Of a stretch of DNA of 64,000 bases, positions 4,405-61,619 are shown in pieces (positions within the stretch are counted from its first letter, which is position 1; every line of letters starts with the position of its first letter). A program made the translations under genes and the position numbers. The notes beneath the pieces are model-generated. The model searched no databases, had not been told where the DNA came from, and saw nothing but the letters and a program-made list of their open reading frames with translations. Source of the DNA: Chloroflexota bacterium (lineage in GTDB: Bacteria; Chloroflexota; Anaerolineae; Aggregatilineales; Phototrophicaceae); assembly GCA_039822165.1 (NCBI GenBank), contig JBCBMS010000017.1:59713-123712 (forward strand). The letters run 5' to 3'.

Positions 4405-4434
4405 CGCAGGGGCTTGATTAATCAAGCCCCTGCG
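4405..4434. repeat. REP-like palindrome, CTTGAT subtype
   Basis: CGCAGGGGCTTGATTAATCAAGCCCCTGCG, a perfect palindrome, between the convergent rny and GT-C genes. Confidence 0.75.
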
Positions 4435-5965
4435 GTTGTCCATTTTCAATAGCGGCCATGCAGTCTTCTGCCCATACAATCACTTCAACTATCTGTGTTT
4501 CCCAGATCGTGTTGGTTGCACAAATGCCATAGCCCAGTTCCAGCATTGCAGATTGGAATTCATCCAGGCTGTCTACCTGCGGAATGGTCAGATCCTTTAG
4601 TAGCCACACGCGAGGCGCTCCATCCACGTATTCGGTCACACGCTCGGCATACGTCCCCTCCGGTGACGGTGCAACCGTCAGAATGCCGAGGGTCTGGTCA
4701 TATGTGGTAGGAACGTCGCGCATCAGCCACAGGTTCGCAAAGTCGAAAGGTGGGTCGCCCAGATAGTGCTGCTGGGTGTGCTCGTGCAACCACTCGCGTT
4801 CCAGATCGTCCGTGACGTAAAACACCAGCACATCATCGTCATGGATCTGCGTCTGCGCCAGATCAACCGCTGTTTGCATAATCTCGCCATGGATCAGTTG
4901 CTCATGATTGGGCAGTCGGGTCATCGCGCTCAGGTTGAGGCCACCCCATAACCCGGCCAGCACCCATATGCCCACAAGTGTTGTGGTCACCCATCGCGGC
5001 AGTGTTACCAGCGCGGTTGCGGCGACCAGTGCCAGCAGCGGCACCCACAACATAATGTGACGGATGTGCAGCAGGTAATCCAGCGGAACATTGGCCAGCA
5101 GCGCCACCACAATATACGTCCCGGCAAGGAACATCAGGTAGCGCCCGCCGGGTGTTTTCACACGCAGGGTCGCCAGCAGCACCAGCGTCGGCATCCAGAT
5201 GAACAATCCATTGCCCACACCATAGAGCAGGCCGACGAAAATGTCCGTGGGCGGCAGGCTGCGAGAGGCGGCAAGCTCGGTCGATACCACGCGCACCATC
5301 ACCAGCCCCCACGGCACGAACAACAGCGCCGTCACCACCAGCAGGAAAAACAGCCGGTTCCATGCCGGGTTGCCACGTGCCACCAGCAGGTGATACAAAC
5401 CAATGCCGACCAGCACCAGCGCAACAATATAATGGCTGTAAAGCAGCGCTACTCCACTGAACACCAGCAGCGCCTCATAAGGGCGTCCACCGCGCCCCTG
5501 CAACAGATGCCAGTACATCGTCACGCCCAGCAGCGCGAAAAACACAGCCATTGTGTAGCCGCGCATCTCATGGAAGTAGTAAAGGTAGAAAAATGACGTG
5601 CCCGTGATAACCGCTGCCATCAACCCCACACCGTCACTGCCGCCGATGCTGGCCCCGGCGCGATACACCATCGCCAGACTGAGCACCCCCCACAGCAATG
5701 CCATCGCCCGCATGGCATACGGTGACCACCCCGCAGCATGTCCCCAGCCCATAAACGTCAGATTGTACAGCGGCGGCCATGAATCTGCCGTCAGGATGGT
5801 GTAGTTGAAGATGGCGGAGATGTCGTCGCCCTGGCCATAGCGCCCGCCCTGCACTTTGGCGTAGGTGCGCTCCTCATCCAGCCAGATCGCGTCCGCATTG
5901 ATTTTTGATGCGGTGATTGCTGTGACGACGAGCAGCAGCGGCACCATCCACCACCATGTTTTCAT
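4418..5965 (-). CDS. GT-C family membrane glycosyltransferase (GT39/ArnT/PMT_2-like) with C-terminal soluble domain
   Basis: About 11 TM helices. DE motif in the first extracytoplasmic loop (AIWLDEERTY), as in GT-C enzymes. A ~150-aa C-terminal non-membrane domain. Tandem with the paralog at 5972-7549. Confidence 0.65.
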   Translation of the reverse strand: MKTWWWMVPLLLVVTAITASKINADAIWLDEERTYAKVQGGRYGQGDDISAIFNYTILTADSWPPLYNLTFMGWGHAAGWSPYAMRAMALLWGVLSLAMVYRAGASIGGSDGVGLMAAVITGTSFFYLYYFHEMRGYTMAVFFALLGVTMYWHLLQGRGGRPYEALLVFSGVALLYSHYIVALVLVGIGLYHLLVARGNPAWNRLFFLLVVTALLFVPWGLVMVRVVSTELAASRSLPPTDIFVGLLYGVGNGLFIWMPTLVLLATLRVKTPGGRYLMFLAGTYIVVALLANVPLDYLLHIRHIMLWVPLLALVAATALVTLPRWVTTTLVGIWVLAGLWGGLNLSAMTRLPNHEQLIHGEIMQTAVDLAQTQIHDDDVLVFYVTDDLEREWLHEHTQQHYLGDPPFDFANLWLMRDVPTTYDQTLGILTVAPSPEGTYAERVTEYVDGAPRVWLLKDLTIPQVDSLDEFQSAMLELGYGICATNTIWETQIVEVIVWAEDCMAAIENGQPQGLD

Positions 5966-5971
5966 ATCAGG

Positions 5972-7549
5972 CTATGTCCTTTCGTCGGGCAGGCACGGCT
6001 CCGGGGCCGCTTGATCTGAATAATACACCCATCCGGTAATGTGCGGTGTGTCCATGTGCTGCACAGCTTCGGTGTAGCCTTCGGCGGCCAGCGTTTCGAT
6101 CAGCAGCATCTGCTGTTCAATCTCCGGCAGATGATTCAGCCGCAGCAGCCACACACGCTCCGCATCCGCCACAAACCGTGTTGCCTTCGGCACATAGTCG
6201 GCTATATCTGTGATAGGTGTTTGTGGGTCTTCGCCCATGGGGTCATCGTTAGTGATCGGATCCAGCGTGTTGATGTGCGCAAACCGGAACGGCACCTCTC
6301 GCCAGTAGTAGACCATCACCACATCGTTGATCCACTCCCATGGCAGGCCACGACTCTCGATCTCCCCGATATACAGAATCGCCACGTCATCCTCTGCGAT
6401 GCAGTGCTCTGCTGTGTGAATGAGTGTGTCCATTGCGGCTGTGGGGAGGGTCGGTTCGTGGCCGGGAGTCGCCAGCATGTAACGGAAGTCAAAGCTGTTC
6501 CAGATGCCCGCGACGACCCACACGGCCAGCAACACCCCGGTAATCAATCGATACCGCGCCAGCATAGCTGCCGCCCCCACGCCGACAATCACATAAAACA
6601 CGGGCAAAATCCCCACCAGGTGCCGCATGTGGAACAGGAACGGCGCAGCAACATTCAGCGCCAGGGTAATGGCCATCGTCAGGATGACAAGTGCTGCTGC
6701 ATAGCCAGTGCCAGACGTGCGAGCACGCCACCCCGCCGCGACCAGCGCAAGAACAAGCAATGGCCACACCCGGTTCCCGAACGACGGCAAAAACGCCAGC
6801 AGTGGCAGCCACGGCGACGTCTGCCCGATGGTCTGGCCCTGTCCCAGCTTGAAGTAGATCACCACCAGCCACGGCAGTGTGAGCACACCCACCAGTGCAA
6901 TCAGCACGGTCACCCGCACCCACGCCTCCCGTTTGATGCGCCGCCCCCACACCAGATGATACAGGCCGATGGCGGCGACCATCGGGTAGGTCGCCAGATG
7001 CGAATAGAGTGCCAGCAGCGTGAACAGCACAAATCCAGCGGCACGCCAGCGGGTCACCTTGTGCAGCACCCGCCAGTAAAACAGAAAACTCAGGGTTGTT
7101 AGCAGCGGATAAACCGTGTAGCCACGCAGTTCGTGTAGAAAGTAGATGAAAAACGCCGAACTCGCCAGCACCAGTGCCGAAAGCGCACCACCGCCGCGCT
7201 TCAGTGAGGGCGGAGCCACGTCCATGCCAAGCCGCGCTGCGGCAGCCACCGTGAGCAGGCCCGCGAACCACGATAGCACGCGCCCACTGAACGGTGTGAA
7301 CCCGGCGGCTATGCTCCACGGCGTGAGCAGCGCGTAATAAACCGGCGGCCACCGGTCAACCAGTACCAGCCGCTCTAAAAATGCCGCCGGGGGCAGCAGC
7401 GGTTCGTACTGTGCCGCGCCGATCAGATAATACGAAATGACCTCGTCGTACCAGAGCGCATCACGGTTGAGTTGCAGCCCGCCCAGCATCGCTGCCAGCA
7501 CAACGGGCAATATCGTGAGAAGTGTCCGAAAATCAGATTTCAAACTCAT
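5972..7549 (-). CDS. GT-C family membrane glycosyltransferase (GT39/ArnT/PMT_2-like), tandem paralog
   Basis: Same architecture as the gene at 4418-5965. First-loop motif ALWYDEVISY, multi-TM core, C-terminal soluble domain. Lies 7 bp upstream of its paralog on the same strand. Confidence 0.65.
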   Translation of the reverse strand: MSLKSDFRTLLTILPVVLAAMLGGLQLNRDALWYDEVISYYLIGAAQYEPLLPPAAFLERLVLVDRWPPVYYALLTPWSIAAGFTPFSGRVLSWFAGLLTVAAAARLGMDVAPPSLKRGGGALSALVLASSAFFIYFLHELRGYTVYPLLTTLSFLFYWRVLHKVTRWRAAGFVLFTLLALYSHLATYPMVAAIGLYHLVWGRRIKREAWVRVTVLIALVGVLTLPWLVVIYFKLGQGQTIGQTSPWLPLLAFLPSFGNRVWPLLVLALVAAGWRARTSGTGYAAALVILTMAITLALNVAAPFLFHMRHLVGILPVFYVIVGVGAAAMLARYRLITGVLLAVWVVAGIWNSFDFRYMLATPGHEPTLPTAAMDTLIHTAEHCIAEDDVAILYIGEIESRGLPWEWINDVVMVYYWREVPFRFAHINTLDPITNDDPMGEDPQTPITDIADYVPKATRFVADAERVWLLRLNHLPEIEQQMLLIETLAAEGYTEAVQHMDTPHITGWVYYSDQAAPEPCLPDERT

Positions 7550-7899
7550 GCAGGGTTAACAATCGCTTATAAAAGAATTATGCTAGAATGAGAGTGTTAA
7601 AAAGTTGTCATCAAACTGTCTTTATTGGGAACTATTCGCTACAACCACCAGAAGGGGGTGCAGCACCGGGACACGGCAACGGATCAATGCGATAACGCAA
7701 CGCGAACGGCTAACCAGGGTAGAGCGTCTCGACAGGGCCAATTATACACACTACAGCGCCCAATTCCTTATATCACGCTCATTTTCCCTCACACCCGTTC
7801 CAGCATACTGCCGCGCCACCCTACCGCCAGGGCCTGCAGCAACTCTGAATGCCAGTCATTGAACGTCTCCGTCATCGGGGACATTGGAGAACAGAACAA

Positions 7900-9064
7900 C
7901 GTGATACAAGAACTTCTGAATCGTGCCGATCAGCGCGGTTACATCACCTATGACGATGTAATCGAAGTTTTGGAAGACGATGGGGAGGATGTGAACGCCG
8001 TCGAATCGATCCTCTACGAGCTGGATGAACTGGGCGTCGAAATGCGCCAGGACACCGACGCCAGCGAAGATTCTGACAGCGACGACGATGAATTTTCACG
8101 CAAACAGAATGTCAGCGACCCGAACGTGGGTGATATTAACGCCGTGAGCGCCGACGACCCGGTGGGGCTATATTTCCGGCAGATGGCCCAGGAGCCGCTG
8201 CTCACCGCGCAGGAAGAAATCGATCTCGCGATGCGTATTGAAGATGGCCGCGCTGCGCAGGATCAGCTTGATGAGATGAGCGATGATGAACGCGCCGACG
8301 AACTGATCGTAGCGGCACTCAAAGCACGCTCCTGTGATGGGCAGGCAGCCCGCGAACACCTGGGGCGCGCCAATACACGCCTCGTCGTGAGCATTGCCAA
8401 GCGCTATATGGGCCAGGGCCTCCCGTTCCCGGATTTGATCCAGGAGGGCAATGTAGGCCTGATGCGTGCCGTCGATAAATACGACTACAAGCGCGGCAAT
8501 CGTTTCTCTACCTATGCCACGTGGTGGATTCGCCAGGCGATCACCCGTGCCCTCGCCCAGAAGACCCGCACCATCCGCATTCCGCTCCACATGACCGAGC
8601 GCATTCGCCAGATGTACCGCACCGCACAGAGCCTGGAACAGCACCTGGGCCGCCGCCCCACGCCAGAAGAAATCGCCGCAGAAATGCAAATCCCCACCGA
8701 CGCGATCCGTGGGATGATGGACGCCAGCCAGCATGCCATCGCGCTGGAGCGCCCGGTTGGTGATGACGGCGATAGTGAGTTCGGTGACTTTATTGAAGAC
8801 CAGGACTCGCCCAGCCCGGTAGAAGCCGCAACACAGCACCTCCTCCAGGAAACCATTGAAGAAGTGCTGAGCGAACTGACGCCACGCCAGAGCCATATTT
8901 TGCGCCTGCGGTTCGGCCTGGGCGGTGGCGAACCGCACACGCTGGAAGAAATCGCGAACAAGTTTGGCCTCAGTCGCGAGCGTATCCGCCAGCTCGAAAA
9001 AGAGGCCCTGCGCCGTCTGCGTCACCCACGTCTGGCGCATAACCTGAAGGATTTCCTCGGGTAA
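7900..9064 (+). CDS. rpoD: primary RNA polymerase sigma factor (sigma-70, RpoD/SigA)
   Basis: Acidic region 1.1; region 2 (DLIQEGNVGLMRAVDKYDYKRGNRFSTYATWWIRQAI); region 3; region 4.2 (TLEEIANKFGLSRERIRQLE). GTG start at 7900 preceded by GGAGA. The ORF track's longer N-terminus is probably untranslated. Confidence 0.9.
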
Positions 9065-9097
9065 AACCAGTCATTGCTAGTCTATACGTGTATGTCA

Positions 9098-9128
9098 CAG
9101 GAACGTTGCAAAACGTTCCTGTTTTGTG
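9098..9128 (+). terminator. intrinsic terminator downstream of rpoD
   Basis: CAGGAACGTT-gcaa-AACGTTCCTG, a perfect 10-bp stem, followed by TTTTGTG. Confidence 0.75.
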
Positions 9129-9167
9129 TAGTTAATATGTTTCTCTCCCTTCTTTCCACATTTTATA

Positions 9168-9195
9168 GTAGGGGCGTGGCATGGCATGCCCCTAC
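9168..9195. repeat. REP-like GC-rich palindrome (GTAGGGGC...GCCCCTAC family)
   Basis: GTAGGGGCGTGGCATGGCATGCCCCTAC. Inverted-repeat arms match other copies in the window. Confidence 0.7.
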
Positions 9196-9300
9196 CGTGA
9201 ATTTACGGATAGGCTTTAAGTCCAACCGGGCACGGTTCTGGTCATGATTCAGAAAAACGGGTTATATTGGACATCAAAATAGCTCTGTAAGGAATTTGTG

Positions 9301-10242
9301 ATGCCTGACCAACCCCGTTTTGCATACTTCAACGGTGAAATCGTCCCGATTGCGGACGCAAAGGTAAGCGTGATGACGCACGCGCTCAACTATGGCACGG
9401 CGGTGTTCGGCGGGCTGCGCGGCTACTGGAACCCAGACCACGAACAACTCTATGTCTTTCGCCCGCTGGAACATTTCACGCGGCTGCGCAACTCCGCGTC
9501 GCTGATGCGGATGCACGTGCCACAGACGCCAGAAGCACTGCGTGACATTCTGCACGACCTGCTGCGTGCGGAAGACTACCGCCAGAACGTGTACATTCGT
9601 CCGCTGGCCTACAAATCCGATGAGAAAATCGGGGTACGCCTGCACGATATTGGCGACGCGCTGACCATATTTGCAGTACCGATGGGCGATTACGTCAGCC
9701 TGAAGGGCCTGCACTGCCATATCTCGGCGTGGCGGCGCGTGGACGACAACGCCATCCCCGCACGCGGCAAAGTCACCGGCGCGTATGCCAACTCTGCGCT
9801 CATAAAGAGCGACGCCGTACTGAGCGGCTTTGACGAGGCGCTGGTGCTTAACGAGGACGGGCACGTGTCTGAGGCGAGTGCGGCCAATGTATTCATCGTG
9901 CGCGATGGTGTGGTGATTACCCCGCCGATTAACGCGAATGTGCTGGAGGGCATTGTGCGGCGCAGCCTCATCACACTATTACACGACGAGATGGGCCTTG
10001 AGGTGCTGGAACGCAACATCGACCGGACGGAGCTTTACCTGGCCGATGAAATGTTCCTGTGCGGGACGGGTGTACAGCTTGCCGGTGTGACCCGTGTGGA
10101 TCACAGGCCGATTGGCAGTGGCGAGATTGGCCCGGTGACGGAGGAGATTGGCCGCTGGTTCATGGATGTGATGTATGGCCGCGTGGAAAAGTACCGCGAG
10201 TGGGTGTCCCCGGTGTACGCGACGGAGACAGTGACGGGTTAG
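9301..10242 (+). CDS. ilvE: branched-chain amino acid aminotransferase (class IV PLP fold)
   Basis: FNGEIVPIADAKVS...HALNYGTAVFGGLRGY...; BCAT/D-aminotransferase-family motifs throughout. 314 aa. Confidence 0.85.
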   Translation: MPDQPRFAYFNGEIVPIADAKVSVMTHALNYGTAVFGGLRGYWNPDHEQLYVFRPLEHFTRLRNSASLMRMHVPQTPEALRDILHDLLRAEDYRQNVYIRPLAYKSDEKIGVRLHDIGDALTIFAVPMGDYVSLKGLHCHISAWRRVDDNAIPARGKVTGAYANSALIKSDAVLSGFDEALVLNEDGHVSEASAANVFIVRDGVVITPPINANVLEGIVRRSLITLLHDEMGLEVLERNIDRTELYLADEMFLCGTGVQLAGVTRVDHRPIGSGEIGPVTEEIGRWFMDVMYGRVEKYREWVSPVYATETVTG

Positions 10243-10259
10243 GTTTGTAGATTCCTTAT

Positions 10260-10289
10260 GGTAGGGGCTTGATGCATCAAACCCCTACC
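10260..10289. repeat. REP-like palindrome, CTTGAT subtype
   Basis: GGTAGGGGCTTGATGCATCAAACCCCTACC. 15-bp arms with one mismatch. Between the convergent genes ilvE and 10294-11514. Confidence 0.7.
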
Positions 10290-10293
10290 ACTG

Positions 10294-11514
10294 TCAGTAG
10301 GTGCGATTCCAGTACTCGGCGGTGCGGGTGGGGGATGGCGGAAACGGGATGTAGGGCACTACAAACCCGCAAATCCAATCGAATGTCGCCTGTTCTACCT
10401 CAACATCTGCGAACCCGCCACAGTTTTCGTAATCCCCGATGTCGTCCACACGTTCCACAATCTCGTTCGTGGTGATGTCAAACCGGATGACCCCCATTTT
10501 CTCAATGGGCGGCCCTTTCGGAAAAATAGACACCGTTGCGATTTCAAGCAAACCGTTATCCATCCAGCGCATATGCTGCCACCCTCCATGACGCACAGAA
10601 GTCTCAATTCGGATACGGTGAATTTGGGGCGTGTAAGGCGCCTCCCCCTCAAAGTTCTCACTGTCCCAGACAAAAAGACCCTTATATGACAACCCACGGT
10701 AATTATTAACTACAATATATCTTTCGTCCGGTGATAGTAAGAGTTGAATGTCATCGTTGGATGTCCCCCAGTATTCGATGTTGAAATCAAGCTGGTAACT
10801 CTCGCGGGTGGCAATATTCCACACAGCAATCCCCTGTGGGCGGTTATCTCCGAGGGTTTCTCGATGTGATGTATACAGCACCATCCACCGGCCATCAAAC
10901 TGGTACTGCACCGGCCCTGCACGCTCGCCAATGCCGTAAATAGCCAGTAAATTACCGGAGGTGAGGTCATGCGCATGAACTTCGTTGATCGCCCCCATTT
11001 TGACCAGCAGTAACTGGCCGGGAATGCCGCGCCAGTCCACGCTGTAAAGGCTGCGCCCATAGACATCCACAACGTCAGATAGCAGTGTCTTTTGACCTGT
11101 GGTGATATTCCAGAGGTAGGCGCCGGAAGCGGTTTGCAGGATGAAATGCGTGTGATTCGGGTGCCAGCTCACCCGTGTAATTCGGGTAGGTTGCCCCGGC
11201 AGCGTGCCGATTGCCTCGGACTGCTGTGGGCTATATAACTCGAAAGCGCCAGATGACGGGGAATGTGTCAGAACGTAGGCGCATCCCGGCGACCACTCCA
11301 CTGTCTGTGCAAAGCCAGCGGATTCTTCCAGCACACGAACAACATCGCCCGTTTGCCAGCTTACAATTTCCAGTGCGTCGCTGTTCGGATCGTATCGGAC
11401 GAAGCGTTCATCATCGGCGGTACGGCAGGTTAGCGGAACCTGTGCGGTTGCAATTGTCAACGGTGTGAGCAAGAGCAGAGTGCAGAGCAATATTAATGCG
11501 AATGGGCGTAGCAT
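10294..11514 (-). CDS. secreted beta-propeller-like (WD40-like) repeat protein
   Basis: N-terminal signal peptide (MLRPFALILLCTLLLLTPLTIATAQ). Repeated W/Y-rich blade-like segments. No catalytic motifs recognised. Confidence 0.45.
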   Translation of the reverse strand: MLRPFALILLCTLLLLTPLTIATAQVPLTCRTADDERFVRYDPNSDALEIVSWQTGDVVRVLEESAGFAQTVEWSPGCAYVLTHSPSSGAFELYSPQQSEAIGTLPGQPTRITRVSWHPNHTHFILQTASGAYLWNITTGQKTLLSDVVDVYGRSLYSVDWRGIPGQLLLVKMGAINEVHAHDLTSGNLLAIYGIGERAGPVQYQFDGRWMVLYTSHRETLGDNRPQGIAVWNIATRESYQLDFNIEYWGTSNDDIQLLLSPDERYIVVNNYRGLSYKGLFVWDSENFEGEAPYTPQIHRIRIETSVRHGGWQHMRWMDNGLLEIATVSIFPKGPPIEKMGVIRFDITTNEIVERVDDIGDYENCGGFADVEVEQATFDWICGFVVPYIPFPPSPTRTAEYWNRTY

Positions 11515-11605
11515 GTGTAACCCCTGAATATGAGTTTATTCAGTTCATGGTATCAACCTGACGGCATCTGCTCCACTACGCCCCCTGTACGAGTACTCTA
11601 CGTGT

Positions 11606-12157
11606 CTAGTCGAATAGCACACTCACAGCGATCTTGAAGTCCGGCAGCACATCACCACCATCCAGCGTGTCATCTGCCTCCAGCGTGGTCACCTCATCCG
11701 GTGTGTGAACCTCCACGCGTTGCTTGTCCGGGAAGATGAGCCACACCAGCTTCGCGCCGTTGGTCAGGTAGTAGTTGGCCTTCTCGCGCAGTTCGGCGTA
11801 GCTGTCATCCGGGGATTTAATCTCCACGGCGAGGTCTGGCATGTGTGGCACCGCCCCCTGTTTCGTGAGTGCGTCCCCACTGACGAAGGACACATCCGGG
11901 ATGCGGTAGTTATAGGTGTCATCCGTGGATGTGTGCGCCGTTTCGACAGACACGCGCCCCAGATCACGCGGTTTCACATGGGCGCGGAGTTCCCCACTGA
12001 CGTTGGCGGCGATGTAACCATGTTCCTGTGTGGGAGCCATCTTCTCAACTACCGTCCCGTGGATAAGTTCAATACTGCGGTTATTGTTCTCTGGCTGCCG
12101 GAGCAATGTTTCGAACTCCGGCAGGGTGTACACAAATTCCTGTATGGTCATGGTCAA
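11606..12157 (-). CDS. Uma2 family (DUF820) PD-(D/E)XK-like endonuclease
   Basis: LIHGTVVEKMAP...HGYIAANVSGEL...PDLAVEIKSP...AELREKANYYLTNGAKLVWLI; canonical Uma2 signature. Confidence 0.8.
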   Translation of the reverse strand: MTMTIQEFVYTLPEFETLLRQPENNNRSIELIHGTVVEKMAPTQEHGYIAANVSGELRAHVKPRDLGRVSVETAHTSTDDTYNYRIPDVSFVSGDALTKQGAVPHMPDLAVEIKSPDDSYAELREKANYYLTNGAKLVWLIFPDKQRVEVHTPDEVTTLEADDTLDGGDVLPDFKIAVSVLFD

Positions 12158-12162
12158 TGCAC

Positions 12163-12720
12163 CTAACTATCGAAATACACGACAAGCCGAACCCCATCAT
12201 CTGTGAATAGCTCTGCTAGCAACCCCATCATACTGAATAGTCTCTCCCATTGGCTGGTGCGTGTTTCTATGCGTTTCATTCGTCGCACCTCGTACAGAAT
12301 ATCCCCAACCTGTGTTTTTCCTTCTCTGGTCACGTCAACGGGAGGAGGATTCGGCAGGAGGGATTTTCCATCGAGTATCCACTTGCCATTTTCAGGGTTG
12401 CGCCGATAGCGCGTCACACGTTGATCTGGTTCATCAGCTTCTTCCCAGTCAATTGCGAGTATTTCGCTGTGGGTAATCCATGTATGAGAATGTGACATAT
12501 CTACCCACTCGTCCAGTATCACTTGCTCGGAGACATCATCTGGCAGGCCACGCTTGCCGACAATTGGACGAAAACCAGCGAAATTGTTCAGTCCAAACAA
12601 GTTTGCGAACCCATCATACTGACGCCACATGATATCATCTATTCGAATTACGCCTCTCCATTGCCACGGATCGGTCGGGTAAAGCAAAACTTCTACCCAA
12701 CCGTGAATATCAGTGCCCAT
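12163..12720 (-). CDS. hypothetical protein
   Basis: 185-aa ORF with good coding periodicity and no recognisable domain. It sits 5 bp downstream of the Uma2 gene on the same strand. Confidence 0.4.
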   Translation of the reverse strand: MGTDIHGWVEVLLYPTDPWQWRGVIRIDDIMWRQYDGFANLFGLNNFAGFRPIVGKRGLPDDVSEQVILDEWVDMSHSHTWITHSEILAIDWEEADEPDQRVTRYRRNPENGKWILDGKSLLPNPPPVDVTREGKTQVGDILYEVRRMKRIETRTSQWERLFSMMGLLAELFTDDGVRLVVYFDS

Positions 12721-12728
12721 ACGCTCCC

Positions 12729-13925
12729 CTACGGCATCAAATTCGAGCGAATTTCCTCGATGCGGGTGCGCAGTGACCGCCGGTAGATGGGAATGCGACC
12801 TTTTTCTGCCCAGTGCATGATCTCATCGGCCACCTCAAACGCAGATTCCGGGCGGGCGGCGGCACGCGCCTTTGCCGCACGCGCTTCCAGGCCTTTCGCC
12901 CCCTGGCTCACCCAGTGCGCCACCGTTTCGCCTACCGCCTCCGGAGAGCCAGGGTACAGTCCCGCCCCACTCTTGACCACAAAGTCCACGTTACCGGTTT
13001 CCTGGCCGGGGATCACGTCGCTGATGATGATCGGCAACCCGGCGGTAATGGCTTCTGTGACACTGGCCGCACCCGCTTTTGTGACGATAATGTCTGCCGC
13101 AGACATCAACGTGGGCATCTCACGGGTAAAGGGGTAAATCCACGTGGGCTGGTTCCACAGCGCGGCCTCCAGGCGGCCCTTGAGCGTCTTATTCTTCCCG
13201 GCCAGCACCACCAGTTGAATGTCCAGGTGGTACTTGTTGATCTCACGGGCCATCTGGTACAGCGGCCCCATGCCCTCGCCACCGCCTACCATCAGCACGG
13301 TGATCTTGCCCGGAATCAGGCCCATTTTCGCACGCGCTTCGGCTTTATCCGTCAGGCGCTCTGCAAAGCGCGGGTTTACTGGCAACCCGGTGATCTTCAG
13401 GCGGTCGGCTGGCACACCGGCCCTCAGCCCCCGGTCGAGTGCGGTTTTGGTCGGCACCATCACGCGGTCGGCGCGGTCGTCGTACCACAACATGTGCGTG
13501 GAGGCATAATCCGTCACCACTGTAAGGAACGGCGGGCGCTCTCCATAGGACATCAGCGCATCCAGCGACGGCGATACCAGCAGGCCGTGCGCACTCACGA
13601 TGACATCGGCGGGGTGGTCGCGCAGCATCTGCTTGAAGTAGCGCCCGATGGTGATGTAACTGGCGCGGGTGATGGTGCGGGCGCTGGTTTTCGTATCGGT
13701 GATGTTGTGCGCAAAGCCATAGCTGCGCTTGCTGCGGGCGATCCACGCCGGGTAAATTTCCGGCGCATACTTGATGGGCGCGGGGGCGTACTCTTTAATG
13801 CCGTCAAGAATCTCTACCTCAGCGGCGTCGCCATATTTTATTGCCATTGCATCACGGATGGCGTTTGCAACGGCGCGGTGCCCACCCCCCGTGTCCGACA
13901 TCAAAATGAGAATGCGTTTTGCCAT
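12729..13925 (-). CDS. GT28-family glycosyltransferase (MGDG synthase / UgtP-like diacylglycerol glycosyltransferase)
   Basis: ILILMSDTGGGHRAVANAI N-terminus and C-terminal UDP-sugar binding region (GGGEGMGP...). This is the MurG-like fold typical of MGDG synthases. Confidence 0.75.
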   Translation of the reverse strand: MAKRILILMSDTGGGHRAVANAIRDAMAIKYGDAAEVEILDGIKEYAPAPIKYAPEIYPAWIARSKRSYGFAHNITDTKTSARTITRASYITIGRYFKQMLRDHPADVIVSAHGLLVSPSLDALMSYGERPPFLTVVTDYASTHMLWYDDRADRVMVPTKTALDRGLRAGVPADRLKITGLPVNPRFAERLTDKAEARAKMGLIPGKITVLMVGGGEGMGPLYQMAREINKYHLDIQLVVLAGKNKTLKGRLEAALWNQPTWIYPFTREMPTLMSAADIIVTKAGAASVTEAITAGLPIIISDVIPGQETGNVDFVVKSGAGLYPGSPEAVGETVAHWVSQGAKGLEARAAKARAAARPESAFEVADEIMHWAEKGRIPIYRRSLRTRIEEIRSNLMP

Positions 13926-14178
13926 AGGTTTCCGTGAGCCTCAATTATTCATGAATCACCGCAGAGTATAACGCACGGCGCGGGGTTTCGTTGCGGACGT
14001 TGCGCTTATTATACGCCATATTTCCGATGCATCTGTTACAGGTGATTAAGTAACTTCTCACAGAAAAAATGCTACCCTTTTGTGCAATATAGCAGAGGTT
14101 TCTTTGTGCAGGGTGTTTTAAAATATGTTTAAATATGTTAATATATCCATATTGTCCCGTTTACAAGGAGGTGAAAGC

Positions 14179-14562
14179 GTGTTAAATCCTGCAATGCGGT
14201 TCTTACGAGCGGAGCTGGAGCAGATTGAACTGGAGCTTCGCCGGATTGAGTACACTGTTGACGGCAATCCAGAGAACTACCCGATCTTTCGTGAGTACCA
14301 GCGCCGCTGCGAGGTGGTACGCGACCTGATGGAACAGGCGGTCACATCCGATGTGGCTATGGCTACCGCAGTAGAAAAACTGGATGCTGCACAGATGTTG
14401 CTGAACGAACTTATTGACGCCGGACGCGGCGATGTGATGGACGAGATGGCCGTCGCGCTATATGAAGATGTGGTTTACCTGGAGGGACTGGCACTGCGCT
14501 TACAGGCAGGCATCACCGCAGAGACGTTTGTCTACAGCCTCGCGGATATTGACCGACTGTAA
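14179..14562 (+). CDS. hypothetical protein
   Basis: GTG start 8 nt after AGGAGG (14167-14172). Helical, acidic 127-aa product. No known motif. Confidence 0.4.
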   Translation: MLNPAMRFLRAELEQIELELRRIEYTVDGNPENYPIFREYQRRCEVVRDLMEQAVTSDVAMATAVEKLDAAQMLLNELIDAGRGDVMDEMAVALYEDVVYLEGLALRLQAGITAETFVYSLADIDRL

Positions 14563-14571
14563 CCCGGCATA

Positions 14572-14596
14572 GAGGCGACCGTCCCCCTGTCGCCTC
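14572..14596. terminator. hairpin between convergent genes
   Basis: GAGGCGAC-cgtccccct-GTCGCCTC. An 8-bp GC stem lying between the 14562 (+) end and the 14615 (-) end. Confidence 0.5.
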
Positions 14597-14614
14597 CGAC
14601 ACGCTCCGTGCGTG

Positions 14615-15618: not shown

Positions 15619-15621
15619 TTT

Positions 15622-49377: not shown

Positions 49378-49381
49378 TATT

Positions 49382-50714: not shown

Positions 50715-50987
50715 ATGGCAAGTATTAAAATTCCAACCCCGCTGCGCCAGTACACCGGCGGCGAAGCAAAAATCGAAGTGCAGGGCACAACCGTGGGTGC
50801 CGCGCTGGATAGCCTGGTGGAGCAGTACCCGGATCTGAAGCAGCACATCTACGAAGATGACAGGCTGCGCTCATTCGTGAACGTCTTCCTCGGCGAAGAG
50901 GATGTGCGCTTCCTCGACGGCGTGAACACAGAAATCGACCCGGATGACAAACTGCGCATTATTCCGAGCATTGCGGGCGGTCGCTAA
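50715..50987 (+). CDS. MoaD/ThiS-family sulfur-carrier protein (HcyS/CysO/QbsE-like) ending ...SIAGGR
   Basis: 90-aa beta-grasp-sized protein. C-terminal Gly-Gly is followed by a single Arg. GGGAGA SD upstream. Confidence 0.7.
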   Translation: MASIKIPTPLRQYTGGEAKIEVQGTTVGAALDSLVEQYPDLKQHIYEDDRLRSFVNVFLGEEDVRFLDGVNTEIDPDDKLRIIPSIAGGR

Positions 50988-50989
50988 CG

Positions 50990-51451
50990 ATGACTGAAGC
51001 ACAGCATGTCATTGACCAGACCGGACTCAAAACCGGGCAGGCGACCACCATCATCCTGCTGCTGGCGGCCTTCGTGATGGGCGAGAGCGCATGGTGGCTG
51101 GTGGCATTTGTCGCACTGGCCCAATTGCTGGGCGCACTCGGATTGCCGTTCGCACCGTTCCGCCTGCTGTACATGGCGCTCAAGCGCACTGGCTTATTGA
51201 AGCCGAACCCGCAGCCCGATCATCACGAGCCGCACCGCTTTGCACTCGCCGTTGGCACCGTCTTTAATGCAGTTGGCGCGTTCGCGCTGGTGAGCGGCGC
51301 AGTTATGTTCGGGTGGGTGCTGGTCTGGATTGTGATTGTGCTGGCCAACCTGAACTTCTGGATCAGCTTCTGCCTCGGCTGCTGGTTCTACTATCGCCTG
51401 AGCAGCCTCGGTGTACCGGGGTTCACGCAATCACCCATTCAAAACGCATAA
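50990..51451 (+). CDS. DUF4395-like integral membrane protein
   Basis: Four TM helices. Start overlaps the carrier stop region. Confidence 0.5.
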   Translation: MTEAQHVIDQTGLKTGQATTIILLLAAFVMGESAWWLVAFVALAQLLGALGLPFAPFRLLYMALKRTGLLKPNPQPDHHEPHRFALAVGTVFNAVGAFALVSGAVMFGWVLVWIVIVLANLNFWISFCLGCWFYYRLSSLGVPGFTQSPIQNA

Positions 51452-51453
51452 CC

Positions 51454-51478
51454 GTAGGGGCGAGGCCATGCCTCGCCC
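51454..51478. repeat. REP-like palindrome
   Basis: GTAGGGGCGAGGCCATGCCTCGCCC (GGGCGAGGC-CAT-GCCTCGCCC). Confidence 0.75.
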
Positions 51479-51519
51479 GATAAACGTAAAATAATGTATC
51501 CCATCAGGAGGTAACACAC

Positions 51520-51924
51520 ATGCTGGAACGTCTGGGAATCGCAGTTGCAGTGCTGGCCATGATCTACTTCGGGTATCAGCTTGTGCGATGTTACAGCCTG
51601 TGGCGTGCGGCGAAGCAGGCTCCGGCAGACCCGCTGCTGAAAAACCTGCGCCGGGGCATCCCGGCAGTGCTGTACTTCACCACGCCGACCTGTGCGCCGT
51701 GTAAATATGCGCAGCGTCCGGCACTGCACAAACTGCAAACCCAACTGGGCGACAGCGTGCAGGTGATCCAGATAGATGCGACCGAAGACCCGGACGCCGC
51801 CTCCCGGTGGAATGTGCAAACCGTCCCGACGACGTACATTCTGAACGGCGACGGCAAACCCGAACACGTCAATCATGGCGTGGCAGATATTAACAAGCTG
51901 ATGCAGCAAATCAAAATCGCGTAG
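51520..51924 (+). CDS. membrane-anchored thioredoxin-family protein
   Basis: N-terminal TM helix and a CxxC active site (TCAPCK). AGGAGG SD upstream. Confidence 0.75.
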   Translation: MLERLGIAVAVLAMIYFGYQLVRCYSLWRAAKQAPADPLLKNLRRGIPAVLYFTTPTCAPCKYAQRPALHKLQTQLGDSVQVIQIDATEDPDAASRWNVQTVPTTYILNGDGKPEHVNHGVADINKLMQQIKIA

Positions 51925-51950
51925 AAATTCAGATGACTCCATGACTGCCT

Positions 51951-51979
51951 GTAGGGGCGCAAACACGCTGTGCCCCTAC
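51951..51979. repeat. REP-like palindrome
   Basis: GTAGGGGCGCAAACACGCTGTGCCCCTAC. Confidence 0.7.
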
Positions 51980-52024
51980 CAATATGGAGACAACACCGTA
52001 AACAACAATCAACAGGAAACACAC

Positions 52025-53281
52025 ATGGAACCGTTAGTAAAAGAACGCGCAGAACTCAGCAAAGAGGAAATCGAGCGCTTTAGCCGTCACCTCATCCTGC
52101 CAAGCGTGGGCCGTGAAGGCCAGGAACGCCTGAAGGCATCTTCCGTGCTGATTATCGGCACTGGCGGACTCGGCAGCCCGCTGGCCCTGTATCTGGCCGC
52201 CGCCGGAGTCGGGCGCATCGGCCTGGTGGACTATGACGTGGTGGACGAGAGCAACCTGCAACGCCAGGTGATCCATGGGCAGAGTACCGTGGGCATGTCC
52301 AAGCTGGATAGCGCCGAGAAGCGCCTGAAAGACCTGAACCCGAATGTTCAGATCGACAAGTACAACGTGCCGCTCGTGAGCGACAACGCACTGGAAATCA
52401 TGGAGCCGTACGATGTCATCGTGGACGGTACGGACAACTTTCCGACGCGCTATCTGGTAAACGACGCCAGCGTAAAGCTCGGTAAACCGAACGTCTACGG
52501 CAGCATCTTCCGCTTTGAAGGCCAGGTGAGCGTCTTCTGGGGTGAGCATGGCCCATGCTACCGCTGTATGTTCCCCTCCCCGCCACCGCCGGGGCTGGTT
52601 CCCAACTGTGCCGAGGGTGGTGTACTGGGCATTCTGCCGGGAACCGTGGGCACCATGCAGGCCACCGAAGTGATTAAGCTGATCGTAGGCACTGGCGAAC
52701 CGCTCATCGGCAAGATGCTGCTCTACGATGCGCAGGACATGGACTTCACGAAGATCAACGTGCGCAAAGACCCGAACTGCCCGGTTTGCAGCATCCCGGC
52801 AGAAGAAGTTGAACTTATCGACTACGAGCAGTTCTGTGGTATGCCGGCCCACGATAAGAGCGATTTTAACAGCCTGGAAGAACTGACGGGCGTGCTGAAT
52901 AGCTTCGATACGTCTGACGGTGAGATCACTGTAAAGGAACTGAAGGCCCGCCTGGATGCTGGCGAAGACCTGTACGTGCTGGATGTGCGCAACCCGGTTG
53001 AGTGGGAAATTGCCGCGCTGGATGGCACCGTTCGCATTCCAAAGCCGGACATCGAAAGGGCACGGCTTGCCATTGAGCAGGGCCGCGCCGACCTGGCCGA
53101 TACGGTCATTGCAGAAATCCCGAACGACCGCGAGGTTATCGTCCACTGCCGCAGTGGTGTGCGCAGTGCAGATACCATCGAGATCCTGAAGGCGCTGGGC
53201 TACACCAACAAACTCGTCAACCTCAAGGGGGGCATCCTCGCCTGGGCAGACGAGATCGACAACGCGATGCCGACATACTAG
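52025..53281 (+). CDS. ThiF/MoeB-family E1-like adenylyltransferase fused to C-terminal rhodanese (MoeZ/HcyF-like)
   Basis: Nucleotide-binding GTGGLGS. Zn-binding CYRC...CPVC. C-terminal rhodanese with active-site Cys (HCRSGVRS). Confidence 0.85.
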   Translation: MEPLVKERAELSKEEIERFSRHLILPSVGREGQERLKASSVLIIGTGGLGSPLALYLAAAGVGRIGLVDYDVVDESNLQRQVIHGQSTVGMSKLDSAEKRLKDLNPNVQIDKYNVPLVSDNALEIMEPYDVIVDGTDNFPTRYLVNDASVKLGKPNVYGSIFRFEGQVSVFWGEHGPCYRCMFPSPPPPGLVPNCAEGGVLGILPGTVGTMQATEVIKLIVGTGEPLIGKMLLYDAQDMDFTKINVRKDPNCPVCSIPAEEVELIDYEQFCGMPAHDKSDFNSLEELTGVLNSFDTSDGEITVKELKARLDAGEDLYVLDVRNPVEWEIAALDGTVRIPKPDIERARLAIEQGRADLADTVIAEIPNDREVIVHCRSGVRSADTIEILKALGYTNKLVNLKGGILAWADEIDNAMPTY

Positions 53282-54178: not shown

Positions 54179-54234
54179 AAAACACCGGGTACATTGCCCG
54201 GTGCTTTACTCAGCTCTCGTCTGAACCAGGGTAT

Positions 54235-54786
54235 TTAATACATACCCTGCTGCTGTGCCGTCAGCTTGATGTATTCCTTGTCCGGCATCGGCTTCTGTGT
54301 CTCGTCATACACATGGAAGCCGCGCTTCTGGTAGTTTTCCAGCGCGTGGGGGCCATCCAGGTTACAGGTGTTCAAAATCACCTCCGACGCACCATCCACA
54401 AAAGACTGTTCGACGCCAAAACTCAGCAGATGCTTGCCCAGGCCCATGCCCCAGTACTCTTCACGCAGGCCAAAGTAAACGATCTCAGTGGCTTCTTCGC
54501 TGCGCACGGCCAGTTCAATGTAACCGGCGGGAGCGCCCTCGAAGTACAGCACATACATGCTCATGCCAGGTTCATCCAATATAGCGCGAAGTTCGTCGTC
54601 GTCCAGCAGCAGGCGATCCGTCCAGTTCCACCTTGCACCCACGGTGTTGTACATAAAACGGTAGTAGCGCACGTCAGAAACGTGAAGCTGCTCGATGGTC
54701 ATACGGTCGTCAGTGACATAGCCGGGTTTGAAGTCTTCCGGGTACAGCCGTAAATACTTCGTGATGAGAATGTCTGGCAGAGCCAT
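54235..54786 (-). CDS. GNAT family N-acetyltransferase
   Basis: Acetyl-CoA-binding motif (GMGLGKHLL). GNAT fold length. Confidence 0.7.
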   Translation of the reverse strand: MALPDILITKYLRLYPEDFKPGYVTDDRMTIEQLHVSDVRYYRFMYNTVGARWNWTDRLLLDDDELRAILDEPGMSMYVLYFEGAPAGYIELAVRSEEATEIVYFGLREEYWGMGLGKHLLSFGVEQSFVDGASEVILNTCNLDGPHALENYQKRGFHVYDETQKPMPDKEYIKLTAQQQGMY

Positions 54787-59259: not shown

Positions 59260-61584
59260 ATGGACTATGCACAGCTAGCAGGGCGCACACTCGGGCAGTA
59301 CGAACTGAAGTCACTCATCGGCAAAGGTGGCATGAGCGCGGTCTACCGGGCACATCAACCGAGCCTGAACCGCAACGTGGCCGTAAAAGTGCTGAGCAAA
59401 GACCTGGCCACAGACCCGACCTATGCCGTCCGCTTCGACAACGAAGCGAAAACGGTCGCCACACTGGAGCACAACAACATCATCCCGGTGTATGACTATG
59501 GACGCGAGGACGACCTGAGCTTCATTGTGATGCGCCTGCTGACGGGCGGCACCCTGGGTGAGCGGGTGGAGCGTCGTGTGGACACCGGTGCGCCGCTGCC
59601 GTCTTTCGGGGAGTGTGTCACGCTGCTGCGCGAGATGACGAAAGCCCTCAGTTATGCACATGGGCGCGGCGTCATCCACCGTGACATTAAGGCCAGCAAC
59701 GTCATGTTCGACGGACAGGGCGACCCTTACCTTGTGGACTTCGGTATTGCGCAGGTGATGAAAGCCAACCTGTCGCTGACAATGGACAATCAAACGATCG
59801 GCACGCCAACGTATATGGCACCCGAACAGTGGCGCGATGAAGATCTCACCCCCGCTACAGATCAATATGCGCTGGCGATCCTGATGTACTACATGCTCAC
59901 GTCACACCTGCCGTTTTATGGCACGAATTCACCGGCCCTGATGCAAAAGCACCTCAACGAAGAAATACCCGCCCCGCAGCGCTACCGGGCCGACATCCCG
60001 GAGGAGGCCGGAACAGTGCTGGCCCGTGGTATGGCGAAACAATCCGACGACCGCTTTGTGAACGTAACCGCCTTTACCGATTCGTTTGAGGTGGCATTTA
60101 AGGGGATGTCTGGTGAGAAAACCGGGTTCTTCACGTTCGCGCTGGGTAACCTGAGCCTGAAGACCGACCCGAACCTGCAAACCCCGACGGTCACAGAGGG
60201 CCGGGAAGACCCCGCCGCCTACAACGCGCCCACCGCAGACCTGCCGCCCATCTCCACAGAGGAACTCCCCCCGCCAGAGTCCTACATGCAGGGCGTGGGG
60301 AAGCCCACCGTGCAATCTATGCAGGCCGCAGCCCCACAGCCGCCACAACCTCAGCAGCCCGCCCCGGTGCCCGTAGCAAATCCTGTGCCTGCCTCACAAC
60401 CGCGCCCACAGCAGCAGGCATCTGCGCCACCACAGCAGTCGTCAGCGGGGCGCAGCCTCTTCACCGGCGTGGCAATCGGGCTGGCGATTGTTGCGGTCAT
60501 CGGGATCGTTCTCCTGTTCGCACTGAACGCATTGTTCGCGCCGGAACCCGCGCCTGTTCCAGTGCCGGCCACCTCTGCACAGAGCGCCGCCAGCGCCACG
60601 AATACCCGCCCATCGGGCAGCATCAGCATTGACCCGTCACCGGGCGCAACAGCCATTACACCTGTTCGCGGGGGTACATCGGTTGCCGCCGGGCCGGTGG
60701 ATGTAAGCGGGAGCGGGGTGCTGTACAACGGCTCTGCCAGTAATGTTGTCCGGGATGTGGATGTTTCACCGACAGGTGTGATTGCCTCCGCCCATGCAGA
60801 CGGTACGATTCGCATGTGGCTGAGTGGTACGTCCGGCTCTCCCACGGTGTTGAACCGCCACAGCGACGTGGTGAACGACATCGACATCAGCGGGGACGGC
60901 GGCACGCTCATCAGTGGCAGCAACGATAACGCCGTGCTGGTCTGGAACGGCCTCTCCGGCGAATATCGCGGGGCACTGCTGGGGCACACAGCGGCGGTAC
61001 GAGGCGTGGCCGTCAGTCCCGATGGTGCGCTGGCCGTCTCTGCGGCAGAAGACCGCACCGTGCGCCTGTGGGACGTGAACAGCGGGTCACAGGCCGCCAC
61101 CCTGCGCGAGGGCGACTCACGCTTCCTCGATGTAGACTTCAGTCCCGACGGGCATCTTGTCGCCGCCGGTGACGAAAGTGGCTTAATCTACCTGATTGAT
61201 GTGGAATCGCTTTCCACGCGGACGCTACGCGGCCATACAGAGTCCGTGCGCAGCCTGATGTTCAGTGCCGATGGCACGCGGCTGGTCAGCAGCAGCACAG
61301 ATAACACGATCCGGGTGTGGTCAGTTGCCAGCGGCTCGATCCAGGCGACACTGCGCGGCCACGACAACGATGTATGGCGCGTCGCCATCAGCCCCGATGG
61401 GCAAACCCTCGCCAGCGGTGGACGCGACAATAACCTCCGTCTGTGGAGCCTGGACGACAATGCCGAGTTCGCCTCATTTAACGACCATGCGGCGTGGGTA
61501 CTGGGTGTCGCGTTCAGTCCCGATGGGCGTGTGGTGGTCAGTGGCGGCGGAGATGGCACCATCCGCACATGGGAAATCGAATAG
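59260..61584 (+). CDS. Ser/Thr protein kinase with TM segment and C-terminal 7-bladed WD40 domain
   Basis: Hanks motifs (GKGGMSAVY, AVK, HRDIKASN, DFG, APE). Pro/Gln-rich linker. One TM helix. Repeated WD40 blades (...VRLWD, IRVWS, LRLWS, IRTWE). Confidence 0.85.
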   Translation: MDYAQLAGRTLGQYELKSLIGKGGMSAVYRAHQPSLNRNVAVKVLSKDLATDPTYAVRFDNEAKTVATLEHNNIIPVYDYGREDDLSFIVMRLLTGGTLGERVERRVDTGAPLPSFGECVTLLREMTKALSYAHGRGVIHRDIKASNVMFDGQGDPYLVDFGIAQVMKANLSLTMDNQTIGTPTYMAPEQWRDEDLTPATDQYALAILMYYMLTSHLPFYGTNSPALMQKHLNEEIPAPQRYRADIPEEAGTVLARGMAKQSDDRFVNVTAFTDSFEVAFKGMSGEKTGFFTFALGNLSLKTDPNLQTPTVTEGREDPAAYNAPTADLPPISTEELPPPESYMQGVGKPTVQSMQAAAPQPPQPQQPAPVPVANPVPASQPRPQQQASAPPQQSSAGRSLFTGVAIGLAIVAVIGIVLLFALNALFAPEPAPVPVPATSAQSAASATNTRPSGSISIDPSPGATAITPVRGGTSVAAGPVDVSGSGVLYNGSASNVVRDVDVSPTGVIASAHADGTIRMWLSGTSGSPTVLNRHSDVVNDIDISGDGGTLISGSNDNAVLVWNGLSGEYRGALLGHTAAVRGVAVSPDGALAVSAAEDRTVRLWDVNSGSQAATLREGDSRFLDVDFSPDGHLVAAGDESGLIYLIDVESLSTRTLRGHTESVRSLMFSADGTRLVSSSTDNTIRVWSVASGSIQATLRGHDNDVWRVAISPDGQTLASGGRDNNLRLWSLDDNAEFASFNDHAAWVLGVAFSPDGRVVVSGGGDGTIRTWEIE

Positions 61585-61590
61585 CGCACG

Positions 61591-61619
61591 GTAGGGGCGC
61601 AGCGGCGCTGCGCCCTTAC
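61591..61619. repeat. REP-like palindrome
   Basis: GTAGGGGCGCAGCGGCGCTGCGCCCTTAC. Between convergent genes. Confidence 0.7.

Follow-up and report, generated by a model that had tools for sequence, protein, structure and literature searches.

GTAG-footed palindromes in a Chloroflexota genome and their likeness to REPs of TnpA_REP subclass 2.4

Introduction

A 64,000-nt stretch of an uncultured Chloroflexota genome (GenBank assembly GCA_039822165.1, contig JBCBMS010000017.1, positions 59,713 to 123,712; hereafter the window, meaning that whole stretch) carries a family of short GC-rich palindromes, whose closest described counterparts are the GTAG-tagged repetitive extragenic palindromic (REP) elements. 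Reports of GTAG-tagged REPs cover eight phyla, Cyanobacteria and Chloroflexi among them; most of the elements are located between open reading frames (ORFs) in convergent or unidirectional arrangement, with some overlapping ORF ends and some lying within small palindromes; GYAG variants and complementary stem sub-families exist, and REPtrons can be lost while the REPs stay (PMC3733652). Among the tyrosine transposases associated with REPs (RAYTs), TnpA_REP subclass 2.4 corresponds to RAYT group 4 of Bertels et al. and bears the motifs NH[IFV]H, WQ and YIxNNP. The REPs of this subclass either are long, the stem bottom consisting of three G-C pairs, or show a "double foot" (GT[AG]G…C[TC]AC), and double-foot units have been suggested as possible collapsed doublets (PMC6006769). 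RAYT group 4 is common in Cyanobacteria, Chlorobia and Caldilineae, and is present in 17 classes (PMC5581495).

The window elements are very probably GTAG-tagged REPs of the type that belongs to TnpA_REP subclass 2.4, or RAYT group 4, and were presumably spread by a RAYT. They are an already described kind of element in a new host, neither new nor genome-specific. Like the REPs of subclass 2.4 (PMC6006769), they combine a GT[AG]G foot at the hairpin base with at least three consecutive G-C pairs, occur in single- and double-foot forms and have a scattered multi-phylum distribution; the sequence also borders RAYT genes of other genomes that bear NH[IFV]H, WQ and YIxNNP motifs, and enters them in frame. 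No difference in kind from subclass 2.4 REPs was found, although the host, an uncultured Anaerolineae-like Chloroflexota metagenome-assembled genome (MAG), is not among the genomes described, and some window copies use a GCAG foot. The families GTAG-1 to GTAG-24 (PMC3733652), including the cyanobacterial GTAG-12, GTAG-15 and GTAG-16 and GTAG-23 of Thermomicrobium roseum, are likened here by description and not by the consensus of a numbered family. They share with the window copies the GTAG tag (with GYAG variants), a GC-rich stem (6–13 bp), a short loop, alternative complementary stem residues and a location between convergent or unidirectional ORFs, some overlapping ORF ends; their insertion inside small pre-existing palindromes is matched by the copy at 40634. 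The T. roseum elements are clustered in blocks, whereas the window copies are dispersed singletons.

More distant likenesses are found in two proteobacterial systems. The E. coli REPs and bacterial interspersed mosaic elements (BIMEs), with TnpA_REP (RayT/YafM), also consist of a GTAG head and an imperfect palindrome and lie outside genes, on their 3' side. A monomeric Y1 HUH enzyme, for which cleavage chemistry and foot recognition are established, recognises head and hairpin (PMC3479197, PMC6006769). However, E. coli stems are bulged, BIME clusters alternate and the RAYT belongs to subclass 2.2, whereas the window stems are mostly perfect, the copies single and many of them double-footed. 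The REPINs of Pseudomonas fluorescens likewise form a family of short palindromic repeats, for which mobilisation in trans by a RAYT present in one copy has been proposed (Bertels and Rainey 2011, PMC3116915); there the mobile unit is an inverted doublet, whereas the window has one pair (15533/15585).

Results and discussion

Number and enrichment of the palindromes

Thirteen occurrences of the octamer GTAGGGGC were counted in the window, where dinucleotide-preserving shuffles predict 1.47 (maximum 5 in 100 shuffles). The pattern GTAGGGG-N8-38-CCCCTAC was found four times (0.00 expected from the shuffles), and a perfect hairpin of at least 7 bp directly after GTAG seven times (0.3 in the shuffles). 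Altogether, 17 related hairpin units were recognised in the 64 kb, approximately 0.27 per kb. The palindrome family is genuine and stands above shuffle expectation. The GTAGGGGC match at 2870 was set aside as a chance match, being located within the RNase Y gene and forming no hairpin. No Rfam family matched anywhere in the window, and a search of literature text returned no match for GCCATGCCCCTAC and chance matches only for GTAGGGGC.

A sequence-only reading of the window had claimed at least 14 copies; all 14 listed sites are present, at or within 1–2 nt of the positions it gave, and three copies were added to them (15533–15561, 15585–15610 and, on the minus strand, 27815–27843). The sharing of a 22-mer, GGGGCATGGCACGCCATGCCCC, by two copies was borne out, with one site at 47574 as given and the other at 40643 instead of 40641. 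Similarly, the copy placed at 23663 is related to the reverse complement of the copy at 42660, but the two differ at 2 of 27 positions (one of them terminal) and not at one; an imperfect left arm is common to both. The observation that arms vary while the outer GTAGGGG/CCCCTAC stays constant holds in the window and extends across 80 metagenomic RAYT loci.

Anatomy and arrangement

The units are 24–40 nt long with stems of 7–19 bp, and all 15 copies that were folded form hairpins, with folding free energies (ΔG) between −13.5 and −43.4 kcal/mol. The foot is an exact GTAG in 12 of the 17 copies, GCAG in three (4405, 27815 and 47571) and degenerate in two (18495 and 35947). The stem base reads GGG(G)C…G(C)CCC in 15 of 17, and GGAC…GTCC in the 15533/15585 pair. 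Inside this constant frame the inner arms are free to vary, and the unit carries either one foot or a foot on both sides. An exact double foot (GTAG…CTAC) was found at 9168, 10260, 40640 and 51951, and near-exact variants at 15533, 61591 and 4405.

Fifteen of the 17 copies are single units, 15533/15585 being the only pair. The description of the family as BIME-like therefore has to be abandoned, since clusters of alternating copies are lacking, and the inverted REP doublet that is the main arrangement of REPINs is not that of the window.

Position relative to genes

A gene map was compiled from ORFs, Pfam matches and gene calls on overlapping public contigs, and assigns 89.6% of the window to coding sequence. 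All 17 copies lie within the remaining 10.4%. Copies are present in 8 of the 12 convergent and 7 of the 37 unidirectional spacers (the latter with 8 copies) and in none of the 13 divergent ones, although these constitute the longest spacer class. Many copies begin 2–17 nt past a stop codon. Thus, the earlier statement that copies sit just 3' of genes, often in convergent spacers, is upheld, as is the assertion that a GTAG foot supplies the TAG stop of the gene at 42707–43114; additionally, the CTAC foot of the 40634 copy (at 40664) gives the TAG stop of the minus-strand ORF 40664–41833. A rule that the foot lies on the coding strand of the upstream gene, followed by all eight single-foot copies of the window, was dropped because other genomes split 14 to 10, so that it is not general.

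This placement bears on two explanations in which the hairpins would have no mobile origin. Independent terminators or 3' stabiliser hairpins, with GTAGGGGC as a host-specific terminator consensus, would account for the position of all copies 3' of genes, often 2–17 nt from a stop codon, and for the stability of the hairpins. However, most copies lack a T-tract, which argues against intrinsic terminators, and a terminator scan of positions 1–20000 called none of the five copies there terminator-like, whereas other parts of the window do contain canonical hairpin-plus-T-tract terminators, such as those at 9097 and 53301. Alternatively, the units could be protein binding sites of an operator regulon or DNA-uptake-type signals that are palindromic by chance. 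Like some operators, the units have conserved outer half-sites, GTAGGGGC and GCCCCTAC, on either side of a variable centre, and the uptake sequences of Neisseria and Haemophilus are also inverted pairs after genes. Nevertheless, none of the 13 divergent, promoter-bearing spacers holds a copy, and single-foot copies retain the hairpin and not the second half-site. Both explanations are further weighed below against the occurrence of the palindrome in other genomes.

The same palindrome in other phyla

The pattern GTAGGGGCRTGGC-N0-12-GCCAYGCCCC was searched in one genome per species, with a chance expectation of approximately 0.2 by our own estimate (23 specified positions against about 1.2e12 strand positions). 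The scan yielded at least 117 loci in about 12 phyla with the same 28–29-mer, the commonest form being the perfect 28-mer GTAGGGGCATGGCGCGCCATGCCCCTAC (GTAGGGGCATGGC-GCGC-GCCATGCCCCTAC). Counted by record title among the 117 loci listed, 40 belong to Chloroflexota and 33 to Cyanobacteria, the latter including the isolates Nostoc flagelliforme FACHB-838 and Calothrix brevissima NIES-22. Nitrospirota account for 15, and five each come from KSB1 MAGs, Peribacteria of the Candidate Phyla Radiation (CPR) and Armatimonadota/Capsulimonadaceae. Three each were assigned to Abditibacteriota, Rhodothermales/Salinibacteraceae and Delta- and Lambdaproteobacteria MAGs, one each to Chlorobiota, Gemmatimonadales (Gemmatimonadota) and a Micromonosporaceae MAG, and two are unclassified. 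The proposal that the palindromes are genome-specific is contradicted by this base-for-base recurrence. Related Chloroflexota MAGs show the same mixed repertoire as the window, including GAGGC, GCAA and GTAGGGACG types.

The flanks of the listed loci show no relationship, even immediately next to GTAG and CTAC, and no target-site or flank motif was found in 176 flanks, apart from a mild T depletion at position +1; what is repeated is thus the palindrome and nothing more. When 2006 ORFs from the 117 loci were compared all against all by BLAST, no gene recurred beside the palindrome except the RAYT. These data speak to the possibility that the units are remnants or miniature derivatives of IS200/IS605-type insertion sequences (IS) with subterminal hairpins, comparable to miniature inverted-repeat or palindrome-associated transposable elements (MITEs and PATEs). 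RAYTs do fall within the same Y1 HUH superfamily (Pfam Y1_Tnp match; PMC6006769). However, MITEs and PATEs measure about 100 bp or more and have conserved ends, whereas the conserved unit here is a palindrome of 24–30 nt with nothing conserved outside GTAG/CTAC in the 176 flanks, its only recurrent neighbour gene is the RAYT itself, and the window holds no tnpB or IS-like ORF. We regard a derivation from IS200/IS605-type sequences as extremely improbable. Carriage by phages was also considered as a route between phyla and rejected as negligible, a single match being obtained in 2.9 million viral contigs.

Association with RAYT genes in other genomes

Searches with phmmer, using the RAYT sequences from the supplement of Di Nocera et al. 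2013 as queries, detected a Y1/HUH gene at three of the listed loci, namely L013 (Peribacteria), L104 (Nostoc) and L009 (Abditibacteriaceae); with a crude regular expression for HUH/Y, none had been detected at the listed loci. In all three, the palindrome lies in frame inside the gene, just after the HUH motif MPNH[VF]H, and translates as GRGMARHAPT or VRAWQCHAPT. Further copies lie upstream of the RAYT gene and directly past its stop in L104, and one abuts the gene start in L009. The proteins carry the motifs MPNHVH, WQRNFYEH and YILDNP (L104) and MPNHVH, WQRNFHEH and YILNNP (L013), and the invariant columns of the RAYT protein alignment include N80, H81, H83, W141, Q142, Y162, I163, N166 and P167. 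The Pfam Y1_Tnp cut-off is exceeded by the proteins of L104 and L013, while the truncated L009 ORF has no Pfam match; REP_Tyr_transpos is the best and only NCBIfam match for all three, below its equivalog cut-off. A protein search returned 5674 relatives, many of them named "REP element-mobilizing transposase RayT"; in these, a hypervariable stretch follows the HUH motif and corresponds to a REP translated in any of the three frames.

Metagenome contigs were then scanned with the RAYT protein alignment, giving 80 loci. A hairpin with the GTAGGGGC foot is embedded in the RAYT gene at 67 of the 80, and is embedded or lies within 300 nt at 72. Foot and stem base are constant among these loci and the inner arms differ from one to another. 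Moreover, embedded and outside copies have the arm core in common at 26 of 35 loci, where permutation predicts 2.7 (at most 10 in 2000 permutations). This co-variation between embedded and dispersed copies is compatible with either direction of copying; passages that describe embedded copies, those in PMC6006769 among them, treat them as tolerated insertions and not as master copies. Altogether, the characterisation of the palindromes as REP-like is well founded: they have a GTAG foot and a GC-rich hairpin, are dispersed through the window and extragenic on the 3' side of genes, and in other genomes are tied to RAYTs.

The two non-mobile explanations fare poorly against these data. An identical 28-mer in about 12 phyla with unrelated flanks, and a palindrome that enters RAYT genes in frame and co-varies with the copies around them, are not what independent terminators would produce; identity across phyla and association with RAYTs largely refute that reading, which we hold to be very unlikely. 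As regards binding sites or uptake signals, the spread over unrelated phyla tracks one transposase family, and the arm co-variation at RAYT loci points to pairing of the variable arms; such an origin is scarcely credible.

Two features of the RAYT genes themselves deserve mention. Long low-complexity or tandem peptide insertions follow the embedded REP in some of them (L013, positions 4036–4200; P0076, P0109 and P0112), so that the variable loop of RAYTs appears to tolerate large expansions. The L013 insertion consists of repeated TTAIGGSPSALRKPT-like units, and a Thermosynechococcus protein has (PPHGM)n. In L009 (4846–6096), about 300 aa of unrelated C-terminal sequence follow the embedded REP in the RAYT frame, which ends at another REP, GTAGGGGCGAGGCATGCCTCGCCCCTAC; this has the appearance of a RAYT that was truncated, or fused, at its embedded repeat.

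Copying, turnover and proposed mechanism

Two dispersed pairs in the window, 23664/42660 with the same arm defect and 40634/47571 with the identical 22-mer, indicate that copies derive from one another and did not originate independently. Three NCBI MAGs and two Logan assemblies hold a near-identical organism, and their contigs end at or in repeats, a Logan contig ending inside the 40634 copy. Strain polymorphism at REP sites was not found in these assemblies, which are 99.7–100% identical. Chloroflexota, Phototrophicaceae, Aggregatilinea and Anaerolineae supply the closest named relatives of the organism's MetY. At a larger distance, the cluster JAB-metY-metX-thiS-DUF4395-trx-thiF is syntenic in related genomes (MetY 82–84% identical). 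The 47571 copy is absent from the orthologous spacers of the related loci L125, L126, L127 and L129, and the 51454 and 51951 copies from those of L125, L126 and L129; the spacers orthologous to those of all three copies are short in the relatives. Furthermore, the spacer between pth and a 135-aa gene, which holds the 42660 copy, measures only 6 nt in L125.

We propose that a RAYT encoded elsewhere in the genome would recognise the hairpin, with its G-C stem base, and its GTAG foot on single-stranded DNA and cut there, thereby copying or moving the unit to new sites. Insertions would persist only where they are harmless, just 3' of genes, which would explain why convergent and unidirectional spacers are filled and promoter-bearing divergent ones avoided. 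The inserted hairpin would join the 3' end of the transcript, probably as a stable stem-loop that protects against exonucleases or causes pausing; the window hairpins may accordingly have a terminating or stabilising effect at the RNA level. We infer that a RAYT exists or existed in this genome and probably moved these copies.

Several observations weigh against the assignment of the window copies to RAYT-spread REPs. No Y1/RAYT gene lies within the 64 kb, and the cognate RAYT of this genome is putative. Five copies (4405, 18495, 27815, 35947 and 47571) lack a proper GTAG foot and are maybe decayed. The copies are singletons and not the REPIN doublets considered the mobile unit in Pseudomonas, and their 3' flanks are mostly devoid of T runs, except for a short TTTT after the 43111 copy. 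Finally, absence at orthologous sites is turnover and not by itself transposition.

The first two of these points agree with a possible but unlikely alternative, namely that the units are REPs by descent in a genome that now has no active RAYT, being either decaying relics or kept for useful 3' hairpins. The great heterogeneity of the arms within 64 kb and the loss of REPtrons with REPs remaining (PMC3733652) would also suit such fossils. On the other hand, the palindrome is perfect in several copies, an identical 22-mer is common to two, the absence of copies at orthologous sites in relatives with about 82% protein identity implies fairly recent gain or loss, and 64 kb is a small sample for a gene usually present in one or few copies. 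REPs spread by a RAYT are accordingly our preferred reading.

Individual copies

No strand is given for the double-foot and degenerate units described first. The copy at 4405–4434 is a double-foot variant with GCAG/CTGC feet (CGCAGGGGCTTGAT-TA-ATCAAGCCCCTGCG) of the TTGAT subtype; it is a 15-bp perfect palindrome (ΔG −29.4, z −7.95) in the convergent spacer between the RNase Y gene (plus strand) and a minus-strand ORF, whose TAA stop falls within the loop. At 9168–9195, the double-foot REP GTAGGGGCGTGGCATGGCATGCCCCTAC lies 103 nt downstream of a sigma-70 gene, and at 10260–10289 the double-foot REP GGTAGGGGCTTGATGCATCAAACCCCTACC, again of the TTGAT subtype, occupies a convergent spacer. The copy at 15533–15561 is a double-foot unit of the GGACG type (GTAGCGGACGG…CCGTCCCTAC) and the first of the pair, with 23 nt spacing. 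Degenerate feet characterise the unit at 18495–18527 (CGGGTGGGCATGGC-AATGTC-GCCATGCCCCCGC), which is located in a convergent spacer, and the degenerate double-foot unit at 35947–35976 (CAGGGGGCGGCACGTTGCGCCGCTCCCCTG), between mfd (plus strand) and a DUF6463 gene (minus strand). The copy at 40634–40673 is a double-foot REP, GTAGGGGCATGGCACGCCATGCCCCTAC, nested in an outer GGCGGG/CCCGCC palindrome, with a 19-bp stem and a ΔG of −43.4. The double-foot REP GTAGGGGCGCAAACACGCTGTGCCCCTAC at 51951–51979 separates a thioredoxin gene from a ThiF/rhodanese gene.

On the plus strand, the second member of the pair, at 15585–15610, is of the GGACG type (GTAGGGACGCGAT-AC-ATCGCGTCC(GTTAC)) and lies 11 nt from the stop of the minus-strand gene 15622–16515; the foot of both members is of the GTAGGGACG type, which is also present in a Phototrophicaceae MAG. 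The single-foot REP GTAGGGGCGCAGGCCATGCCTCGCCCC at 42660–42686 follows the pth stop by 5 nt, and its arm defect recurs in the 23664 copy. Another single-foot REP, GTAGGGGCATAGCATGCTATGCCC, at 43111–43134, provides with its GTAG the TAG stop described above. The copy at 47571–47599 has a GCAG foot (GCAGGGGCATGGCACGCCATGCCCCATAC) and is located between metY and an AbiL-like cassette, its 22-mer core being that of the 40634 copy. The single-foot REP at 51454–51478 (GTAGGGGCGAGGC-CAT-GCCTCGCCC) begins 2 nt after the DUF4395 stop, and the near double-foot unit GTAGGGGCGCAGCGGCGCTGCGCCCTTAC at 61591–61619 occupies the convergent spacer after a Ser/Thr kinase-WD40 gene.

The minus strand carries three single-foot copies. 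The one at 21405–21428 reads GTAGGGGCATGGCAGGACATGCCC on that strand and is followed by a CTTTGCGY tandem motif, the one at 23664–23690 reads GTAGCGGCGCAGGCCATGCCTCGCCCA, and the one at 27815–27843, with a GCAG foot, reads GCAGGGGCGTGGTCGTAGCGGCCACGCCC and lies in a convergent spacer.

Other features near the copies

A low-GC two-gene cassette is located at 47642–49377 between metY and metX, with a GC content at third codon positions (GC3) of about 0.45 against about 0.70 elsewhere. Its first gene encodes an AbiLi-like AAA_15/AAA_21 ATPase (PADLOC AbiLi 3e-57, also PDC-M38A) and its second a DUF3226 protein (PDC-M38B); the cassette looks like an AbiL-type candidate anti-phage system. It is absent from the orthologous clusters in L125, L126 and L127. 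In L129 it is present at the corresponding position, and the junction there bears another palindrome, ACAGGGGAACA…TGTTCCCCTGT. The 47571 copy does lie at the cassette junction, as the sequence-only reading had it. The surrounding cluster (45702–53281) encodes a JAB/MPN protease, MetY (O-acetylhomoserine sulfhydrylase), a MetX-like hydrolase, a ThiS-like carrier, DUF4395, a thioredoxin and a ThiF-rhodanese protein, and its synteny extends to four related metagenomic loci. It resembles a sulfur-carrier-protein (thiocarboxylate) route that leads to homocysteine or methionine.

A second repeat, the tandem CTTTGCGY motif (TGCGYCTYTGCGT, often followed by TAAAAA), is present at 21430–21465 and 23636–23655, adjoining the REPs at 21405 and 23664. 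Two occurrences in the window are not significant alone, since 12 of 100 shuffles reach two. The repeat was also found in L028, L033, L045, L050, L067 and L080, recurring only in Chloroflexota among the listed loci, and it lies within approximately 150 nt of a REP in L033, L045, L050 and L080. Additionally, palindromes with CAGG…CCTG ends (ACAGGAACGTTGCAAAACGTTCCTGT, GCAGGAACGTAATATATTACGTCCCTGC and CAGGGTATTTAATACATACCCTG) are located at 9097–9122, 21359–21386 and 54227–54249; they may represent a separate small family or diverged feet. The first of them is followed by a T-rich tail and was called terminator-like.

The REP at 23664 is situated in another low-GC stretch (22580–24336; GC 0.52, GC3 0.45–0.46), which contains two minus-strand ORFs without Pfam or PADLOC match and may be another acquired island. 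In public gene calls it comprises proteins of 187 and 182 aa separated by a 600-nt gap, and the REP falls within this gap. Lastly, the gene at 11606–12157 encodes a putative endonuclease of the Uma2 family (Pfam PF05685; PADLOC PDC-S03). This family is expanded in Cyanobacteria and Chloroflexota, phyla rich in this REP type; no physical association of the gene with the palindromes was seen in the window.

Biological meaning

The window represents one more host for an already described REP/RAYT system. For the organism, the hairpins explain contig breaks in its assemblies, as well as odd C-terminal extensions and stop codons supplied by GTAG, and they mark the 3' ends of genes in a poorly studied Chloroflexota lineage. 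What goes slightly beyond the published descriptions cited here is the cross-phylum reach of one identical 28-mer. Instead of slow vertical co-evolution, its identity in about 12 phyla could conceivably reflect ongoing spread between phyla of a self-contained unit, a subclass 2.4 RAYT gene that carries its REP in frame as a "seed", an idea we consider doubtful and well short of probable. If it were true, a naive genome would need to receive only approximately 600 bp for a new REP family to be founded there. The identity of the 28-mer could moreover serve in studies of the conservation or transfer of RAYT specificity.

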